Positions 32,789-45,606 of a stretch of DNA of 64,000 nucleotides are shown in pieces. Both the position numbers and the translations under genes were made by a program. Source of the stretch: Flavobacteriales bacterium (GTDB lineage: Bacteria > Bacteroidota > Bacteroidia > Flavobacteriales_F > PHOS-HE28); assembly GCA_019638115.1 (NCBI GenBank), contig JAHBUK010000001.1, forward strand, positions 512,238-576,237, in the 5' to 3' direction. Within the stretch, counting starts at the first letter, position 1. Each line of letters opens with the position of its first letter. Under the pieces are notes generated by a model. It was not told where the DNA came from. It searched no databases and saw nothing but the letters and a program-made list of their open reading frames with translations.

Positions 32789-35023
32789 CTACCAGCGGTT
32801 ACGCAGTATCGTCAAGTGCCCGGTCATGGGCTTCAGTCCGTCCTTGGAAACGATGACTTCGTAGTAGTACGTACCGTCGGGCACATCCAAGGCGCTCCAC
32901 GTGTTGCGGTAGTTGTTCACGTCAAGTACGATTTGACCCCACCGGTTGAATACACGTACCGTGTTCGGGCGATTCGCGAGACCATCGATCACCCAGAAAT
33001 CGTTCAGGCCATCGCCGTTCGGGGTGAACACGTTCGGGATGATGATGTCGCAGTCCACATCCACCTGAACACTCGCATAAGCAACACGGCCGCAGGCATC
33101 CGTGGCGGTCACGTAGTAGATGCCTTCCGTCTGCATGGTAACATAGGTACTGCTGCCGGTGTAACCCGTGGACCACTCATAGCTGAGCTGACCACCATAT
33201 CCACCGGAACCAGCAACCGAAATGAGCATGCTATCAGGAGCACATTCGATCTGGATGTTCTCGGTGAACAACACGATCTCCGGTGCATCCACTATGGTGA
33301 AGGTGACGGAAGCATCCACCGAGCGCCCACAATCATCCGTGAAGGTGGCCGTGATGATGGCGGTCTCGTCGCCTTCAGCCTCCTCATCGCCCAACGGCTG
33401 GAAGGGAAACAGAATGTTGAGAGTCCCATCCGGGATCACCGTGGAAGCAGGCAGTTGGTAGTCGCTGCCATTCTGGGCTGTACCTGCGGTGGAGAAATTG
33501 ATGGTCAGGTCACCCGGCACACCTTGCGGACGGATGATGTTGATCTGTGCACTTTCACAGCCCTCCACCAGTGTGTTGGAACCGATGATGGACATGTTCA
33601 ACGGAGGTAGTTCGATAAGCCCGACGATGAAATCCGCGGACGCGGTCTGCAAGCAGTCGTCGGTAACCGTTGCCGTATAGACGGTCAGAGCGGTTGGGCT
33701 TACCGTTAACGAGGGACCCGCGGCTCCGGTACTCCAAGTAATGGACAAGGGCTCATAGCCACCGCCGTATTGGGGTACCAGCTCGGTTGAGGCTCCGCAC
33801 TGGATGTTCACATTGTTGCCGGAAATGACCACTGGAGGCGCCTGTTCTATGAAGAAGATGAACTCATTGGTGATATCGACACCCGAGCATGGCGACTCGG
33901 AGACCAGTGTTAGGATCACCGTTTCCGTTCCATCCGGATCGATGGGCACGTTGAAGATGAACGGGATGGTCTCCTCGCCAGGACCGAAAACCAAGGAATC
34001 CGGGAACGGGGGGAAATAATCCACACCCGGCGTAGCGGTCCCGCTGGCCGATATCAGCACCACCGACCCGACCGTTGTATCACCCGTGCGGGTAAAGTCG
34101 ATCTGCACGGGATAGCAGCTTTCCAAGATCGTGTTCAAGCCTACGATGCCCGGGCCAGGAGTAAGACTGGGAATGAAAGGCGTGCTGGAGAAACTGCTGG
34201 ACTCCAGGAACACAGCGGAATCAAATGCCGTGTCGCCACCATCCGCAATGGCCAGCTTGATGTGGTAGGTCTGATTGCACTGAACGGCAGCGCGGGCGGT
34301 GAGCACCACGGTCTGACCATCGAACTGGATGGTGGTGCTACCGGCATTGCTAACGTAATAGATGTTGTTCGCCTGCCAGTTGGGGTCCAGGCTGGAGCAG
34401 TTGGAGGCAATGCCATTAGTGCCAACAACGCCAGGATTGACGGTATTGATGGAGACGGGCACATTGGTGCCGGGCACCACGGCCAGGTTTACGGCATTGT
34501 TCTGAAAGGGGCCAACAATGCCCGGCCCGCTCAGGAAAAACCCGAACGCATCGTTCACGGAACCACAGACGTATTCGGGGTATTCTTCCGAAGCAAACAC
34601 GAACCGGAAGGAAATGGAGTCACCTGAAGGAACGAAGTCGAACTCAAGCACTGCGCGATCGTTGGTGGCAACGCCTGCCAACATGGTCAGGTCCGGGTCG
34701 CCGGCACCAAAGTTTCCACCTCCGAGTGTGGCGCTCGGTGAATTGTTCGGACCAAGAGCAACGTTCACGGAACCAGTAGCAAGGATCACCCCGTTCGGGA
34801 TACCGATGTCGGTATTCGTACCATCAAAAGTCCCGGCCTGTTCATTCACGGAAGTACCCGGACCACCGTTGAAGGTGATGTTACTGACGGTAACGCCGGA
34901 ACCCAACAACACGTCCTGCACCAGCTGTTGCGGGGTTAGCGTATTGCCCACTACCAATTGGCCATGGGCGGCACCCAGACAGGCGGCAACACCCACTGTA
35001 CTAAGAAGGATCCTGATGTTCAT
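32789..35023 (-). CDS. T9SS C-terminal-sorting-domain protein with an N-terminal choice-of-anchor-L domain (secreted adhesin/surface protein)
   Basis: Signal peptide, then choice-of-anchor-L motifs (FVFASEEYPEYV, FGFFLSGPG). The C-terminal CHU_C/T9SS type-B domain reads NVFTPNGDGLNDFW…RWGQ…YYY. Confidence 0.85.
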   Translation of the reverse strand: MNIRILLSTVGVAACLGAAHGQLVVGNTLTPQQLVQDVLLGSGVTVSNITFNGGPGTSVNEQAGTFDGTNTDIGIPNGVILATGSVNVALGPNNSPSATLGGGNFGAGDPDLTMLAGVATNDRAVLEFDFVPSGDSISFRFVFASEEYPEYVCGSVNDAFGFFLSGPGIVGPFQNNAVNLAVVPGTNVPVSINTVNPGVVGTNGIASNCSSLDPNWQANNIYYVSNAGSTTIQFDGQTVVLTARAAVQCNQTYHIKLAIADGGDTAFDSAVFLESSSFSSTPFIPSLTPGPGIVGLNTILESCYPVQIDFTRTGDTTVGSVVLISASGTATPGVDYFPPFPDSLVFGPGEETIPFIFNVPIDPDGTETVILTLVSESPCSGVDITNEFIFFIEQAPPVVISGNNVNIQCGASTELVPQYGGGYEPLSITWSTGAAGPSLTVSPTALTVYTATVTDDCLQTASADFIVGLIELPPLNMSIIGSNTLVEGCESAQINIIRPQGVPGDLTINFSTAGTAQNGSDYQLPASTVIPDGTLNILFPFQPLGDEEAEGDETAIITATFTDDCGRSVDASVTFTIVDAPEIVLFTENIQIECAPDSMLISVAGSGGYGGQLSYEWSTGYTGSSTYVTMQTEGIYYVTATDACGRVAYASVQVDVDCDIIIPNVFTPNGDGLNDFWVIDGLANRPNTVRVFNRWGQIVLDVNNYRNTWSALDVPDGTYYYEVIVSKDGLKPMTGHLTILRNRW

Positions 35024-35036
35024 TTCATCAATGCGT

Positions 35037-37676
35037 TTAGTCCACCGTTCCTTTCAACAACGTCACATGGCCGAAGCCTTCAATGGCAGGGAAGTAGTGC
35101 CCCACTGCACGGTACTTGTAAACATACACGTCAGTTTTGGCTGTGCCACTTCCGTTCACTCGTCCATCCCACATCACTTGCATGTCCGTAGTGCGGAACA
35201 CTTCCATGCCCCAGCGGTCAAAGATGGACATTTCGAATTCACTTATGGAATGTCCAACCGGACCGAAAAAGTCGTTCACGCCATCCCCATCCGGTGAGAA
35301 CGCATTGGGGAAGTAGAGGTGGGCCGGTGCTTCGAGCTTCACTGAATCCACTGCTGCGCATCCGTTCGGTGTAGTAATGCTCAGGGTGACCCAATGGTCC
35401 TCCAAATTCAAGTAGCTGTGCACCACCTCATTGCCACGGTACATGGTACCATCACCCATGTCCCACAACCAGGTCTCGGCATAGGGCAAAGTAGCCGCCT
35501 GCAGGTACCAATCATCCTGCCCTCTATTGGTGACCACAATGTCTATGTACACATGCTCCACATCGTAGGTGGCGCTTGCACTGCGCTGTTCACCGCACTG
35601 GTCCGTTACCGTAACTACATATTGGGTCATTTCCCATGGCTGCATCCACAACATGGGGTCTGTGAAGTCCATGTCATGCCAGTCCACGAAGTAGTAGCCG
35701 GACCCTCCGTTTACAACTGCATGCAGCAGGATGCTATCCCCAGCACATATGGTCCTGCCTGGTGCAAGGCTGAGAACAAAGGGAGCGTATACCGGTGTAA
35801 GCGTGGAAACCGCTGCCGTGCCAATATTCCCACATTGGTCCTGAACAGTTATCGTGTAAGTCTGATCTGCCGGAACGGGTACCGTTATGGAGGAATTGGT
35901 GCCGACGGTCTGGCCCGCTGCATTGGTCCAGGTCAAACTGTAAACCCCATTACCACCAACGACATCCACCACCCCCACGGTTCCCTCGTCCCCCGTGCAT
36001 ATCACGGTAGTATTGCCCGTGGTGGTGATCTGGATCGGGTCCAAAGGCACGGTGGTCACCAGCACACTATCCTGGATGGAACTGCCACAACCCTCGGTAA
36101 CAGTGACCACATACCAAGTGGGTGGACCTGCAGGTACCGTGATCGTTGGTGTATTGCCCACGTTCACGCCGTTCAAGGTCCACTGGTAGGTGAACACGTT
36201 ATTACCACCGGTTACATCCAGCACGGAGATCGGGCCTGACGCCAAACAATCGATCGCCGTGGGTGGGCTGGCGCTGATGGTCATGGGCGGATAGATCGGC
36301 AGGGTCACGTTGAACTCCACCGTTACGGGCTCCACCGCACAGATATCGCTCACCGTAACGCTGTAAGTGGTGGTCACACCAGGAGAGACACTGATGGTAG
36401 GCGTGGTCTCACCGGTACTCCAGAGGTAGGAGTACTGACCCATACCACCAGAAACAGTGGGTGCCAACACGTTCACTTGGCCACAAACGCTGTTCAGGTT
36501 GTTGGATGTGACCGTTAGCGGTGGTGGGCTGTCGATGGTAAAATTGAAGATGGTCTGTAGGATGGAGCCGGCACACTGTATCAACTGCTCTACCATGATC
36601 ACTACAGTTTCCGGGCCATCGGGATCGGGAGGCACATCCAAGAAGATGCTTACGAATTCCTGCCCCGGGGCATAATAAATTGTGCTTGGTAGCGCCGGCA
36701 CGTAGTCTACACCGGGCGTAGCGGTTCCGCCAATGATCAACTCCACCGTAGCTTCTTCACTGAGGTCCCCAAGGCGCTGGAAAACCAATTCAAAGGGACC
36801 ACACCCTTCCAACATGGTGTTACCGAACACCCCTGGGCTAGGCTCCAAATAAGGAAGGACCTGGCCCGAACTGGTAAAACTTCCCGCCTCAAGAAAAACG
36901 CCCGAATCATAGGCTGAATCACCGGCATCGCCGATCGCCATTTTTATGTGGTATGTCTGACCACACTCCACCAAGGCGAACGCAGTAAGCACAACCGTGA
37001 AGCCGTTGTATGCCACTGTGGTGCCCCCTGTGTTGTTCACATAATATTGGGGGTTCACGGCTGGGCAGAACGGATCGTTCGGGTTATTACCCTGACCGTT
37101 GTTAACCGTGTAGATGCCTACAGGCGTGGTGGTGCTAGGTAGAAGCGCAATATTGATGGCACCGTTGGAGAAGGGACCGGCAATACCCGGACCGCTCAGG
37201 AAGAAGCCGAACACGTCATTGAAGGAGCACACGAAACTGGGATACTCTTCCGAGCCGAACACGTAGCGGAACCGCAGGGTGTCTCCGGTGGGGATGAAGT
37301 CGAACTCAAGGACCGAACGATCGTTGATGTTGCCCCCCGAGATCGTGACCAGATCGGGGTCGGACCCACTGCTCAGTGTTTCACTGGCGAAGTTGGCCGC
37401 AGGACCTGCAGCAGCTGTTACCGAACCGGATGAAAGGATCACTCCTGCGTCCAGTCCGAGGTTTGAATTCACAGCCGTGAAACTCCCCCTTCCCAACTGA
37501 CCCGCTGGCGGGTTCGCTTGGCCATTGTAGGTGACATTGCTGGCTGTAACACCACCACCCAGTAGCACATCCTGCACCAACTGATTGGGGGTGGGTGCAT
37601 TTGTCACGGTCAACTGAGCTTGCACATGACCGAGCAGGAGAGCGGCCACCAATGCGGGAAGAGTGCGGAGTAACAT
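35037..37676 (-). CDS. T9SS C-terminal-sorting-domain protein with choice-of-anchor-L domain; tandem paralogue of 32789-35023
   Basis: YVFGSEEYPSFV and FGFFLSGPG. The C-terminal domain reads NAFSPDGDGVNDFF…RWG…YVY. The start is at MLLRTLPALVAALLLG (alternative 37733). Confidence 0.85.
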   Translation of the reverse strand: MLLRTLPALVAALLLGHVQAQLTVTNAPTPNQLVQDVLLGGGVTASNVTYNGQANPPAGQLGRGSFTAVNSNLGLDAGVILSSGSVTAAAGPAANFASETLSSGSDPDLVTISGGNINDRSVLEFDFIPTGDTLRFRYVFGSEEYPSFVCSFNDVFGFFLSGPGIAGPFSNGAINIALLPSTTTPVGIYTVNNGQGNNPNDPFCPAVNPQYYVNNTGGTTVAYNGFTVVLTAFALVECGQTYHIKMAIGDAGDSAYDSGVFLEAGSFTSSGQVLPYLEPSPGVFGNTMLEGCGPFELVFQRLGDLSEEATVELIIGGTATPGVDYVPALPSTIYYAPGQEFVSIFLDVPPDPDGPETVVIMVEQLIQCAGSILQTIFNFTIDSPPPLTVTSNNLNSVCGQVNVLAPTVSGGMGQYSYLWSTGETTPTISVSPGVTTTYSVTVSDICAVEPVTVEFNVTLPIYPPMTISASPPTAIDCLASGPISVLDVTGGNNVFTYQWTLNGVNVGNTPTITVPAGPPTWYVVTVTEGCGSSIQDSVLVTTVPLDPIQITTTGNTTVICTGDEGTVGVVDVVGGNGVYSLTWTNAAGQTVGTNSSITVPVPADQTYTITVQDQCGNIGTAAVSTLTPVYAPFVLSLAPGRTICAGDSILLHAVVNGGSGYYFVDWHDMDFTDPMLWMQPWEMTQYVVTVTDQCGEQRSASATYDVEHVYIDIVVTNRGQDDWYLQAATLPYAETWLWDMGDGTMYRGNEVVHSYLNLEDHWVTLSITTPNGCAAVDSVKLEAPAHLYFPNAFSPDGDGVNDFFGPVGHSISEFEMSIFDRWGMEVFRTTDMQVMWDGRVNGSGTAKTDVYVYKYRAVGHYFPAIEGFGHVTLLKGTVD

Positions 37677-37836
37677 GGGCGAAACGATGTCTGAAGTGCT
37701 AAAAATAGGTGCCTTGCACACATCCTTGACCACCCACTATGCAGAAAGGTTGCCCCGCACTTGGAAAGAACATGTTCTCAGGCGGGAACGATCGCCCAAT
37801 ACCCCCTCCCTATCTTCGTCGCCCATCCAAGGAACC

Positions 37837-40762: not shown

Positions 40763-42796
40763 ATGTCGGCCACGCAAGATACCGCTACCCGCCCCACCAA
40801 CCGCCTGGCCCGCGAAAGCAGCCCCTATTTGCTGCAGCATGCGCACAATCCGGTGGACTGGTACCCCTGGGGCGAGGAAGCCTTCGCCAAGGCGCGCGAC
40901 GAGGGCAAGCTGGTGTTGGTGAGCGTGGGCTACAGCAGCTGCCACTGGTGCCACGTGATGGAGCGTGAGTGCTTCGAGGACGAGGACGTGGCCCGGCTAA
41001 TGAACGAGCGCTTTGTGTGCATCAAGGTGGACCGCGAGGAACGGCCCGACGTGGACCAGGTGTACATGACCGCTGTGCAGCTGATGACCCAGCGCGGGGG
41101 CTGGCCGTTGAACTGCTTCACCCTGCCCGACGGCCGGCCCGTGTTCGGAGGCACCTACTTCCCGCCCGCCGCCTGGAGCAAGGTGCTCACCGAACTGCAC
41201 GATACCTGGGAGCGCGAGCCCGAACGCGTGATGGAATACGCCACGCGCCTCACCAAGGGCATCGCCGCCTCAGCACTGGTGGAAGCTCCCCTGGAGCCGG
41301 CCGCGTTCGATCGCCGCATGCTCGAGCGCATGCTCGCCAACTGGGAGCCGCACTTCGATCGCGTGCATGGCGGGCCGGACAAGGCGCCCAAGTTTCCGCT
41401 GCCCAACAACTACCTGTTCCTGCTGCGCTACGGAACCCTTACGGCCGACCGAGACCTGCTGAAACACGTGGAACTCACGCTGGACAAGATGGCCCTCGGC
41501 GGCATCTTCGACCAGGTGGGCGGTGGCTTCGCCCGCTACAGTACCGATGTGCTTTGGAAGGTGCCGCACTTCGAGAAAATGCTGTACGACAACGCGCAGC
41601 TCGTCTCGCTCTACAGCCAAGCCTATCAGGCCTTCAAGAAGCCTCTGTACCGCGACACCGTGGAGCGCACGCTGGACTTTGTGTTCCGCGAGATGACCGG
41701 CGCGGACGGGGCCTTCTTCAGTGCGCTGGATGCCGATACCGAAGGCGAGGAAGGCCGCTACTACGTGTGGACCAAGAACGAGTTGATGGCCATGCTGGGG
41801 GCCGACTACGACCTGGCGGCGGCCTACTACAACGTGAATGAGCGCGGCCACTGGGAGCGCGGCAACCACATCCTGCTGCGCCATGCGGACGATGCGGCAT
41901 TCGCGGCGGAGTTCGGCATCGGCGAGGCGGAACTGCGCCAACGCGTGTCGTCCATCAACGTGCGCCTGCTGCAGGCGCGCAACAAGCGGGCACGGCCGGG
42001 GTTGGACGACAAGGCCCTCACCAGCTGGAACGCGCTGATGGTACACGGCCTTTGCGATGCCTACGAGGTCTTCGGAAGGGCGGAATGGCTGGCCGCCGCC
42101 GAACGCACCATGGAACTGCTGCTGGGCACCTGCCGGCGCCCCAATGGTGGCCTGTGGCACAGCCTGAAGGACGGCAAGGCCACCATCAACGGCTACCTGG
42201 AGGACTACTGCTTCACCATCGAGGCGCTGCTGGCGCTGTACGGCGTCACCTTCAACGAGCGCTGGATCACCGAGGCACAGGCCCTGGCCGAACACGCCAT
42301 CCGCCACTTCCACGACGAAGCCACCGGGCTGTTCCACTTCACCAGCGACCTGGACCCGCCGCTGATCACCCGACCGCGCGAAATGCACGACAACGTGATC
42401 CCCGCCTCCAACAGCAGCATGGCCAAGGGCCTTCATCTGCTGGGCACTCTGCTCGATGAGGAGCGCTACCGGGCCATCGCGGCACGCATGCTGGCGGCCG
42501 TGGCGGACGATCTGGCAGGCTACCCCAGCGGCCACAGCAACTGGGCGCAATTGCTGCTGATGCATGTGTTCCCCTGCCCGGAGATCGCCATCACCGGACC
42601 GGAGGCGCTACGCCTGCGCAGGGAGTTCGCGGAGCACTACTTGCCCAACCGCATCTTCCTGGGCGGTACCACGCGCAGTGGATTGCCGTTGTTGAAGGAC
42701 AAATTCCTGCCTGCCAGCACGATCTTTGTGTGCGTGGACAAGGCTTGCCAACTGCCCGTACCCACCGTTGCCGAAGCCCTGAACCAATTGCCATGA
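40763..42796 (+). CDS. Thioredoxin-domain protein of the DUF255/YyaL family, with a C-terminal six-hairpin glycosidase-like (N-acylglucosamine-epimerase-like) domain
   Basis: N-terminal [29 protein letters not shown]…SCHWCHVME (thioredoxin-like CxxC). Confidence 0.85.
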
Positions 42797-43689
42797 AGCG
42801 CCTCCTCATCCTACTTGCCTTTGCCGCCACCTTCGGCGCCGAGGCTCAGGTGCTGCTGATCCAACCCGGCACGGACGACCCCGGCGAGTTGCGCTTCAAC
42901 CCGCAGTTCATCGCGCGCAACCGCATTGCCAGCATGGTGGGCGAGCAAAGCGTGAAGCGCGACAACCGTCCCATGCTTGCCCGACCGGAGAAGCACGTAT
43001 ACCGCTTTGATGAGCAGGGTCGCACCATCTACGCCAACCACAGCTTCGGGCAGCCCGGCACCGGTCGTGATACGGCCTCCACCCTGTACACCTTCAACGA
43101 TCAAGGCGCTGTGACGCGCCGCCTCCGAAATGACCTCAGCGGCTACTTCGGCTACGATGTGGTGCGCGATGAGCAGGGGCGGCCCATCCGGGAAACCTTC
43201 ACCCGCATCGAGAACCTCAGCACCAACCGCTACGAACTGAACCCCGGCGCGGTGACCGAGATCAGCGACGAGCACTTCCGCTACGAAACGGTGAACGACA
43301 CCGTGTGGAAGCGTGTGTACATCAACAGCCTGGGCCTGCCCTACCGCGAGCAGGTGCATACCAGCGACCACTTGGGCTACCTGCGCAGCATCGAGGATCG
43401 CTACCTGGTGAATAGCCGCCGTTCACGCATCACCTTCGGCTACGATGAAAAGGGCCGCTTGGCCGAGCGCATCGAACAGCCCGACCTTGCGCAGCAGCGC
43501 TACCTTCGACGCACTTGGAGGTACGATGCCTCGGGAAATGTTGTGGAAGGAAGTCTCTTCCACGACGAACGCCAGATCAACCGGGACGAGTTTCTCTACG
43601 ATGAGAACGGCCTGCTGAAAGCGAGGCTCACGCTCGATATCGCAACGAACAACATCGAGGTGCTGAAGTTCCGGACGGAGCGTCGCTGA
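42793..43689 (+). CDS. Secreted YD/RHS-repeat protein (short, ~300 aa)
   Basis: Signal peptide [19 protein letters not shown]. Repeated Y-x-(F/Y)-D-E-x-G-R units ([60 protein letters not shown]). The ATG overlaps the upstream stop. Confidence 0.65.
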
Positions 43690-43842
43690 TCCCACGGGAC
43701 GCATCGCCTGTGGATCACCAGAGCGACTGACCGGTAGGCATACCGTTGTGCCTTTCTCCGCATCGCAAGCAGCCCATGCCCATCGTGCTGATCTGTAGCG
43801 TGGCACAATAGGTGGAGCACCTGACGGACGTACCTTTCCTCC

Positions 43843-44358
43843 ATGCGCCCGATCCTCCTTCTCGCCTTCCTCCTCCCCTTCACGCTCCACGCCCAACCGG
43901 TCGTAGTGCATTGGGCCTATGGTTCTTTCGGCCAGCAGGGCGACGCCGCCTTCGTCGTGGAGCGCGGACGCATCCACCAAGCCTCCGGGCCATTCGGCCA
44001 GAAAGGACCGTGCATCTACGTGTTCAATGAAACCGAGGTGTTCCACAGCTCCGATGCCTTCGGCACCAAGGGGCAGGGCGCTTTCAAGGCGGAAGGAGAG
44101 CTGAACGGCAGCAACATCAAGCTGTTCCGGTGCCAAGGCACATTTTGCAATAAAGGGAGTTGCGTGCTCCTGATGGAAGGCAACAAGGTCTTCCGCGCGG
44201 AAGGACCGTTCTGCACCAAGGGTGATGCGGCGTTCGTTATTGAAGGCAACACCGTTTTCCTTGCGGAAGGCGCGTTCGCGCGCAAAACGGATGCGATCCT
44301 ACAGGTGCACGGAGAACTTCCCATGCTGGCCCTTTTGGCCATCCTTGCCGGTTTGTAA
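43843..44358 (+). CDS. Secreted tandem-repeat protein: six ~23-aa G-x-F-(G/C)-x-K-G…E-G-N-x-V-F repeats and a hydrophobic C-terminal tail
   Basis: Signal peptide MRPILLLAFLLPFTLHAQ. Repeats: SFGQQGDAAFVVERG / GPFGQKGPCIYVFNE / AFGTKGQGAFKAEGE / GTFCNKGSCVLLMEGNKVFRAE / GPFCTKGDAAFVIEGNTVFLAE / GAFARKTDAILQVHGE. The C-terminus is MLALLAILAGL. Confidence 0.6.
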   Translation: MRPILLLAFLLPFTLHAQPVVVHWAYGSFGQQGDAAFVVERGRIHQASGPFGQKGPCIYVFNETEVFHSSDAFGTKGQGAFKAEGELNGSNIKLFRCQGTFCNKGSCVLLMEGNKVFRAEGPFCTKGDAAFVIEGNTVFLAEGAFARKTDAILQVHGELPMLALLAILAGL

Positions 44359-44401
44359 GCTCCCTTGGATCGCCCATCTTTGTGTCATCACCATCTGCCC
44401 C

Positions 44402-44887
44402 ATGAAGACCTGCACCTCCTTGCTCCTTGCATCGGCGCTTATCTTGAGTTCGTGCAGCGATAAAGAGGGTGGCCCTCCCCGCCCGATCGGGAACGCCGAA
44501 GACCTTGTTGGCGAGACCTTCCACTTCAAAGTGAAAAGCGAGAACTGGATCGTGAACGGCATCGCCGGTGACGACACGTATGGATTCGCTGCGAAAAGCA
44601 ACGTTGCCATCCTCACGAACGCGACCATCAACCAAGGGCACGTGCGCGTCTACCTGAAGCGGGGTAGCAACAACTGGCACGAACTCCCGAGCCAAGCCCA
44701 CCAAGGTGCGCCCTACGGTGTCAACTGGCGCTTCTCACTGCATCCGGGACTGATCCGCATCCTCATCGACCGGAACGGCGAGAGCTTCGAGCCACCTGCC
44801 GACCTGTGCACCTTCAAGATCGTAGCTTACATGAGCGGTGGCATGGGCACCGATGATGCTCAGTCTTTCGAGACCCCGCATCAATAG
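44402..44887 (+). CDS. Hypothetical lipoprotein (161 aa)
   Basis: Lipoprotein signal MKTCTSLLLASALILSSC. The start is chosen at the signal-peptide Met, not the upstream ORF start at 44222. Confidence 0.6.
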   Translation: MKTCTSLLLASALILSSCSDKEGGPPRPIGNAEDLVGETFHFKVKSENWIVNGIAGDDTYGFAAKSNVAILTNATINQGHVRVYLKRGSNNWHELPSQAHQGAPYGVNWRFSLHPGLIRILIDRNGESFEPPADLCTFKIVAYMSGGMGTDDAQSFETPHQ

Positions 44888-44922
44888 GCGCCAGAACACT
44901 CCACTTCTTGGATCCAACCGCT

Positions 44923-45606
44923 TCAATTCGCCTTGATGGCGACATTGACATTCGCCCCCTTCCCATACTCCGGCACCAAGTACGCCAAGTCATCAAAGTG
45001 CTGTGCTTGGTAGCGCTCCAGTGCCCCTGCCAGCATGAACGCAGCTGAAGGACGGACACCCTCCATTTGTGTGATGCCAGACTGCTTCGTCCAGAGTTGT
45101 GCGGCCTTGTCCGCACCATCCCCGAACACCACACGGGCTTCCGGTAACGCTGCCCAGGCCTCGTCCAGGATCAAGGGTGCGGCATCGGCCATGGCTTGGC
45201 CATCGGGCTTGTAGGGCTGCGCGAAGACCTCCATGCGGCGGGCATCGATCATTGGCCAAAGCGTGCCGGTGAAAGGGCCATGCTGCTGGCGTGCGGCAGC
45301 CACCAGCGTGCCCAAGGTGGAGAGACCGATGATGGGCTTTTCCAGCGCGTAGCACAGGCCCTTGGCGGCGCTGAGGCCGATGCGCAGGCCGGTGTAGCTG
45401 CCCGGCCCGATGCCCACGGCCACGGCATCGAGGTCCTTCAGCGGCAAGCCCGCCTCTTCCATCACCTCGGCAATGAAGACGTTGACCTTCTCGGCGTGCG
45501 CGAGCTTCTCGCTGTCGATCTCGCGGATGGCCAGGAGCTGCTCCCCACGGCCCAGGGCCACGGAGCAGAGCTTGGTGGCGGTCTCGATGGTGAGGAGGAG
45601 CGGCAT
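44923..45606 (-). CDS. tsaB: tRNA threonylcarbamoyladenosine biosynthesis protein TsaB (YeaZ)
   Basis: MPLLLTIETATKLCSVAL…VGIGPGSYTGLRIGLSAAKG is the inactive Kae1/YgjD-like fold typical of TsaB. Confidence 0.85.
   Translation of the reverse strand: MPLLLTIETATKLCSVALGRGEQLLAIREIDSEKLAHAEKVNVFIAEVMEEAGLPLKDLDAVAVGIGPGSYTGLRIGLSAAKGLCYALEKPIIGLSTLGTLVAAARQQHGPFTGTLWPMIDARRMEVFAQPYKPDGQAMADAAPLILDEAWAALPEARVVFGDGADKAAQLWTKQSGITQMEGVRPSAAFMLAGALERYQAQHFDDLAYLVPEYGKGANVNVAIKAN

Follow-up and report, generated by a model that had tools for sequence, protein, structure and literature searches.

A probable exported six-fold beta-flower protein with a core C-terminal helix, encoded next to a YD/Rhs-like gene in uncultured Flavobacteriales

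The protein of 171 residues encoded at 43843..44358 of the window, the 64,000-nucleotide stretch of a Flavobacteriales contig analysed here, is best explained as a whole as an exported six-fold beta-flower protein with a core C-terminal helix, an explanation that we regard as highly probable. Profile comparisons place it, with homology at the profile level, in the 6-fold beta-flower family, as a divergent member so far lacking annotation. The beta-flower fold was described from AlphaFold models by Durairaj et al. (2023, Nature; PMC10584680). It comprises 12 strands with sixfold symmetry, and many members enclose a C-terminal hydrophobic helix; the longer loops hold Lys/Arg and Phe, some members carry export or lipoprotein signals, and a semi-conserved [DNEQ]xxG motif lies at the hairpin tip (PMC10584680). 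The gene and the parts of its product are as follows.

43843..44358, + strand: coding sequence of the beta-flower protein, 171 aa, stop codon included (ORF list, homologues, dN/dS)
43843..43893, + strand: signal peptide, aa 1-17, MRPILLLAFLLPFTLHA (n-, h- and c-regions, predicted signal peptidase I cleavage before Q18, conservation)
43900..43920, + strand: N-terminal half-unit VVVHWAY, aa 20-26 (DSSP strand 20-26; W24, A25 and Y26 nearly invariant)
43921..43986, + strand: repeat unit 1, aa 27-48, GSFGQQGDAAFVVERGRIHQAS (autocorrelation, DSSP, unit-pair scores)
43987..44052, + strand: repeat unit 2, aa 49-70, GPFGQKGPCIYVFNETEVFHSS (autocorrelation, DSSP, unit-pair scores)
44053..44136, + strand: repeat unit 3, aa 71-98, 28 aa, with a 6-aa insertion (LNGSNI, aa 87-92) at the hairpin turn
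44137..44202, + strand: repeat unit 4, aa 99-120, GTFCNKGSCVLLMEGNKVFRAE (autocorrelation, DSSP, unit-pair scores)
44203..44268, + strand: repeat unit 5, aa 121-142, GPFCTKGDAAFVIEGNTVFLAE (autocorrelation, DSSP, unit-pair scores)
44269..44322, + strand: repeat unit 6, limited to its first strand, aa 143-160, GAFARKTDAILQVHGELP (DSSP strand 147-156, then a G-E-L-P linker)
44323..44355, + strand: C-terminal hydrophobic helix, aa 161-171 (MLALLAILAGL; DSSP helix 161-170, block pLDDT 95)

A database search returned 26 homologues at 49-93% identity, nearly all of them 171-172 residues long, and scanning of species-representative genomes revealed orthologues in 65 of them, representing at least 65 species. 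Judged from their record titles, all these genomes are uncultured Flavobacteriales or Bacteroidota MAGs. The window contains no paralogues of the protein. Its exact sequence (43843-44355) is absent from a 15-billion-protein collection. The same collection contains the YD-like neighbour described below as MBX2978136.1 (Flavobacteriales bacterium MAG); in that record, the flower gene may be called differently or differ by one residue.

The initial annotation had not assigned the protein to a named repeat family. This holds as far as cut-offs are concerned, as the window protein gave nothing above them in Pfam or NCBIfam and no match to PF21786 at E<=1, but profile-level evidence does allow its assignment to that family. 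In a Pfam scan, PF21786 (Bflower_3, 6-fold beta flower protein, placed in the Tubby-like clan CL0395) was matched by 19 of the 27 family members. The best scorer in the subfamily, P0022, obtained 32.2 bits over profile positions 8-125 of 125, and the others obtained 13-21 bits or nothing. The subfamily is unannotated because every member falls under the gathering cut-off of 34 bits.

The link to the beta-flowers was corroborated by profile searches in both directions. Exhaustive searching of 1.84 billion representatives with the family profile (A1) yielded only 34 proteins (representatives at 50% identity). The A1 profile retrieves P0045 with an E-value of 5.5e-8 (1.84 billion proteins), and P0045 passes PF21786 with 58.4 bits versus the cut-off of 34. 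We aligned A1 with A2, a set of distant relatives that includes P0045, using hhalign, which returned a probability of 99.45% and an E-value of 4.4e-22 over 162 columns spanning signal peptide, repeats and terminal helix. Conversely, an HMM built from the distant set A2 alone scored the window protein at 76.8 bits. The distant relatives (P0040, P0042, P0044, P0045, P0048, P0049 and P0052) harbour a signal peptide, six units of ~22 aa and an LLAILA-like C-terminal helix.

The A1 profile also matches 22-aa repeats in P0043 (3798 aa, FHA-like beta-helix, E 1.7e-9) and in phage-fibre-like proteins. Periodicity alone can therefore give good E-values. What appears to set the beta-flower link apart from such matches is the end-to-end architecture, terminal helix included. 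On inspection, we set aside P0043 and the phage-fibre-like P0046 and P0050 as periodicity-driven matches to other 22-aa repeats. The repeats of the latter two read TTGAFxLSGSNAxLL. Either these three matches reflect pure periodicity, or hairpin and coil repeats of such a length share sequence rules.

The subfamily shares with PF21786 proteins the signal peptide, six units of ~22 aa, 12 short antiparallel strands, the C-terminal hydrophobic helix and a length of 155-175 aa, as well as longer loops with Phe/Tyr and Lys/Arg, shorter loops with a [DE]-G-[ND] turn and a mostly bacterial distribution. In the window protein, [ED]-G-[ND] occurs at short turns and x-G-x-F-G at long loops; the literal [DNEQ]xxG motif is found in unit 3 only (D-A-F-G). 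The Flavobacteriales subfamily differs from other beta-flowers by its low scores (at most 32.2 bits versus 34), its small size (34 representatives), its loop Cys residues and its YD-like partner gene. None of the 27 members matched MORN or MORN_2 (PF02493, PF07661) at E<=1.

The tie of the flower protein to clan CL0395, which also comprises the Tubby, scramblase, LURP1 and DUF567 proteins, rests on the assignment made by the Pfam curators. Neither Foldseek against the PDB nor a profile search of PDB sequences revealed significant structural or sequence similarity to the solved members 2FIM and 1ZXU. The top Foldseek match in the PDB, 1zxu, a Tubby/scramblase-like protein that Durairaj et al. 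mention by name, is not significant (E 0.07, probability 0.51, TM 0.24), the PDB profile search gave no match at E<=10, and Foldseek against BFVD returned no significant match for the flower protein. To our knowledge, no beta-flower protein has an experimental structure. The Tubby, scramblase and LURP1 relatives are eukaryotic and cytoplasmic, whereas the flower protein is bacterial and exported. Compared with Tubby-like proteins, beta-flowers have much shorter strands and loops and a circularly permuted first strand (PMC10584680).

We next consider the repeats themselves. The autocorrelation profile (BLOSUM62, residues 21-160, 1000 shuffles) has a single dominant peak at a lag of 22 residues (z = 11.6) and none at 23, so that the period of ~23 aa given in the initial annotation has to be corrected to 22. 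Minor peaks at lags 6, 8 and 14 (z 3.4-4.7) correspond to the spacing of Phe residues within a unit (8, 8, 6). The units start at aa 27, 49, 71, 99, 121 and 143. After removal of the 6-aa insertion of unit 3, 13 of the 15 unit pairs scored at or above the 99.9th percentile of shuffled 22-mers. Together with the autocorrelation, these scores bear out the six regular tandem repeats that had been noticed initially. There is no tandem repeat at the DNA level in the gene, indicating that the repeats are old and diverged.

Each of the six units contains the motif G-x-F-(G/C/A)-x-(K/Q)-(G/T), in line with the G-x-F-(G/C)-x-K-G pattern described at the outset; the downstream E-G-N of that description is clean in units 4 and 5 only, the remaining units having E-R-G, N-E-T, E-G-E and H-G-E. 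In an alignment of 66 sequences, the G-x-F-G-x-K-G-D loops are near-invariant and the opposite turns variable. In each unit, the conserved face carries one aromatic residue, one basic residue and an Asp; in the subfamily, units 4 and 5 also have conserved Cys residues in their loops. The LNGSNI insertion of unit 3 is lineage-specific, being present in 6 of the 66 aligned sequences. More generally, length differences between the proteins come down to indels in three places, the E-G-N-type turns of units 1, 3 and 5. Repeat number, whose variation across strains had been suggested as a check, does not vary: there are six units in 65 of 65 species, which suggests a closed fold that requires six hairpins exactly.

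An AlphaFold2 model was obtained from a shallow input alignment (27 sequences, Neff 1.9) with a pLDDT of 89.6 and a pTM of 0.83. According to DSSP, it consists of 12 beta-strands and a C-terminal helix (161-170), the signal peptide forming a low-pLDDT N-terminal helix. The half-unit VVVHWAY provides the first strand (aa 20-26). It resembles the second strand of each repeat and supplies the twelfth of the set. Two strands per 22-aa unit follow (10 and 6 residues), with 2-residue turns within units and 4-residue G-x-F-x loops between them. This yields six complete hairpins, in each of which the G-x-F-G/C-x-K/R-G loop links the second strand of a unit to the first strand of the one after it. In the model, the twelve antiparallel strands would form six beta-hairpin petals, a predicted layout that fits the description of the beta-flower. 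That the barrel is closed and the helix buried is deduced from DSSP, pLDDT and the homology to the family as described.

The flower gene lies in a conserved neighbourhood, with the following features.

40763..42796, + strand: YyaL/DUF255 thioredoxin-domain protein, 677 aa, without signal peptide (PF03190, E 5e-70)
42793..43689, + strand: YD/Rhs-like partner, 298 aa, putatively exported (RHS_repeat, E 4.7e-4; AlphaFold2 and Foldseek)
43690-43842: spacer of 153 nt between the YD-like and flower genes, unlike the overlap in most relatives
44402-44887, + strand: predicted lipoprotein, 161 aa, LSSC lipobox (no match in Pfam, NCBIfam, PADLOC or PHROGs)

The order yyaL/DUF255, 298-aa YD-like gene, flower gene and convergent tsaB is found in nearly all 65 genomes, and the YD-like gene is directly upstream of the flower gene wherever the contig extends that far. 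The stop of the former overlaps the start of the latter by 4 nt in 33 of the 65 loci and by 1 nt in 13 (46 in total), and the gap is at most 2 nt in 50 of 65. These arrangements indicate that the two genes are co-transcribed and probably translationally coupled in most relatives. The 153-nt spacer of the window has no copy elsewhere in it, no Rfam match and no unusual RNA fold (z = +0.94). Across 42700-45000, Rfam gave nothing relevant, and a promoter and terminator scan gave no sites, the sigma-70 consensus being inappropriate for Bacteroidota.

The yyaL stop overlaps the start of the YD-like gene (ATGA, 42793-42796). YyaL is syntenic in nearly all relatives but is missing upstream in two loci (L017 and L022), where the pair of YD-like and flower genes persists. 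Its C-terminal half is GH88-like, and a cytoplasmic redox-fold protein coupled to two exported ones makes an odd combination.

The YD-like protein has a signal peptide ending A|Q. We collected 217 homologues of ~300 aa, all from Flavobacteriales and many with PF05593. Its AlphaFold2 model (pLDDT 90.8) has 18 antiparallel strands. Foldseek gave local matches to the YD shells of Rhs proteins and teneurins (E ~2e-8) and weaker ones to Bacteroides 'porin-like' curved sheets (4ghb, TM 0.37-0.42) and LolA/LolB-like proteins. Rhs cocoons are all far longer than this protein of ~300 aa. No defence-system or phage family emerged for the flower protein, the YD-like partner or the lipoprotein from PADLOC and PHROGs.

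The pairing of YD-like and flower genes seems specific to this Flavobacteriales clade, the distant relative P0042 having no YD-like neighbour. Because the whole neighbourhood is syntenic in the clade, the linkage provides only moderate evidence for a shared function and may partly reflect relatedness. The lipoprotein gene was rejected as a candidate functional partner, as it occurs only in the closest relatives. In relatives, small cassettes of mobile appearance, with a PIN_3 toxin-antitoxin pair or AAA_14/DUF4143, occupy the variable position downstream of the flower gene (L001, 6574-7310; L002, 3459-4589). A gene for a ParE toxin is found near a distant flower relative (L068, 840-1303).

From these data we propose the following working model. 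The Sec signal peptide would be removed by signal peptidase I before Gln18, and the N-terminal half-unit and six 22-aa units would form 12 antiparallel strands arranged as six hairpins, or petals. The petal tips would correspond to the conserved G-x-F-(G/C)-x-(K/R)-G loops and the petal bases to the variable E-G-N-type turns. The C-terminal helix (aa 161-171) would pack as a core in the channel of the shallow barrel, not spanning the membrane, and the mature protein would stay in the periplasm. There, the ring of six Phe and Lys/Arg loops might serve as a binding face for an anionic ligand of the membrane or envelope, perhaps jointly with the YD-like partner. This last part, periplasmic ligand binding by the conserved ring, is put forward tentatively: it stems from an analogy with Tubby, which binds phosphoinositides (PMC10584680, PMC2639001), and from the published remarks on the loops of beta-flowers.

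The same fold might instead use its six F/Y-x-x-K/R-G-D loops as a multivalent, lectin-like or cell-wall-binding face, directed at peptidoglycan, an envelope polysaccharide or an exo-polysaccharide rather than at a lipid. Symmetric repeat lectins are common, and the combination of aromatic, basic and Asp side chains on the conserved face of every unit would suit such a role, as would the presence of Tyr as the aromatic residue in all six units of P0045. In the window protein, however, this residue is Phe, which is less typical for sugar stacking than Trp or Tyr. Moreover, no carbohydrate- or cell-wall-binding family was matched at E<=1, and the conserved gene trio comes without glycan-processing genes. 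We regard glycan or cell-wall binding as a serious competitor, though with less than even odds and rated slightly below the binding of a membrane or envelope ligand.

Beyond ligand binding, the flower protein and the mini YD/Rhs-like sheet protein could form an obligate exported two-protein module, a scenario that we rate as rather unlikely. By analogy, a curved YD sheet might cradle the six-fold barrel or be capped by it, like a miniature plugged Rhs/Tc cocoon, or the two proteins might be a lipid-handling pair. If true, such a module would for the first time place the orphan beta-flower fold in a functional context.

The closed barrel has to be weighed against an open surface module, a right-handed beta-helix, solenoid or beta-roll in which each 22-aa unit makes one coil, close to the beta-solenoid or beta-roll envisaged in the initial annotation. 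Right-handed parallel beta-helices (PF13229; FHA/TpsA-type coils of 20-22 aa) do share with the flower protein a repeat of ~22 aa, alternating hydrophobic residues, Gly/Asn/Asp turns and weak reciprocal profile matches. These include the hits of the family profile to FHA-like beta-helix and phage-fibre-like repeat proteins and a match of the flower protein to Pfam Beta_helix (E 0.13), and the 8-, 8- and 6-residue spacing of Phe within a unit could be read in the same way. Yet the Beta_helix score of 12.3 bits is far under the cut-off of 25.9, and in the AlphaFold2 model each unit contributes two strands with a 2-residue turn between them, which makes antiparallel hairpins. The number of coils commonly varies in open solenoids, in contrast with the strict six units of this family. 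The conserved N-terminal half-unit and the terminal core helix round out a 12-strand set in a mature protein of only ~150 aa, and the homology to beta-flower proteins runs end to end. An open solenoid is accordingly very unlikely. The AlphaFold prediction that had been suggested as a check for a solenoid gave six antiparallel hairpins, and the profile-level match to a known family, a kind of match named initially as a refutation, removes the novelty that had been surmised for the module.

For the C-terminus, the model and the conservation favour a role as core of the closed barrel. The protein ends with a run of 13 hydrophobic residues (LPMLALLAILAGL), without flanking basic residues; the hydrophobic tail mentioned in the initial annotation is therefore present, as is the signal peptide, which has the expected appearance (M-R, a hydrophobic run, then H-A|Q). 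The tail might be taken for a membrane anchor or a PEP-CTERM/GlyGly-CTERM-like sorting signal that tethers the repeat domain to the membrane or cell surface, given that the run is uncharged, located at the extreme C-terminus and preceded by G-E/D-x-P. Thirteen residues are nevertheless too few to cross a bilayer, no basic cluster follows and no sorting-signal family was matched in NCBIfam. Conservation is residue-specific beyond plain hydrophobicity, with L164 and L168 invariant and A163, L165 and I167 conserved in at least 90% of sequences, and the pLDDT of 95 of the helix implies that it packs against the domain in the model. This helix also aligns with the C-terminal helix of the distant beta-flower proteins. 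There is a precedent in the scramblase/Tubby-like proteins, in which a helix first presumed to be transmembrane sits buried in the 12-stranded barrel (Bateman et al., PMC2639001). We therefore hold an anchor or sorting signal to be highly improbable; judging from the model, the tail most probably forms the core helix of the barrel.

Regarding export, A17 is conserved in 58 and Q18 in 64 of the 66 sequences, which fits the Q-rule described for signal peptidase I substrates of Bacteroidetes (PMC5837995) and the predicted cleavage before Gln18. The organism exports surface proteins by type IX secretion, as shown by two large proteins with CHU_C domains encoded in the window (32789-35023 and 35037-37733, both on the - strand), one with Calx-beta and one with PKD. 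The flower protein has no C-terminal domain of this type (~80 aa; CHU_C PF13585, Por_Secre_tail, TIGR04183) at E<=1 in Pfam and NCBIfam, only 11 residues follow its last strand and it has no lipobox. Lacking both a type IX domain and a lipobox, the protein is more likely to reside in the periplasm than at the surface. The cell-surface neighbourhood evoked initially is weak: the YD-repeat and lipoprotein neighbours are present, but the lipoprotein is confined to the closest relatives and the type IX domain is missing.

Lastly, the 171-aa ORF is a real gene under purifying selection. Among the 65 species, the most frequent length of the protein is 166 aa, which corresponds to a unit 3 of 22 aa, and the indels are always multiples of three nucleotides. 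The dN/dS ratios between the window gene and 13 orthologues range from 0.06 to 0.34, with dS near saturation. The gene has a GC3 of 0.74 in DNA of 59.9% GC, and it is also called in independent assemblies. DNA of such composition yields long shadow ORFs on both strands, and one of them, of 237 aa, lies on the opposite strand at 43423..44136; that it is the real gene and the flower ORF spurious is effectively refuted by the conserved length and frame with in-frame indels only, by dN/dS ratios far below 1, by the GC3 value and the confident structure prediction, and by the choice of gene callers in independent assemblies. A spurious ORF, which the initial annotation had considered in case no relatives were found, is at odds with conservation in 65 species.

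The protein is otherwise an ordinary hypothetical protein of uncultured Flavobacteriales. Its interest lies in its fold, whose recognition dates only from 2023 and rests on predicted structures. The locus adds to the beta-flowers a well-conserved subfamily that is below the Pfam cut-off. It also illustrates a pitfall: when a small protein of beta-repeats ends in a short hydrophobic helix, this helix may form the core of a barrel instead of anchoring the protein in a membrane. Handles for a first functional test of the fold come from the ring of Phe/Lys loops, which is conserved, and from the tightly coupled mini YD-repeat partner, found across 65 species.
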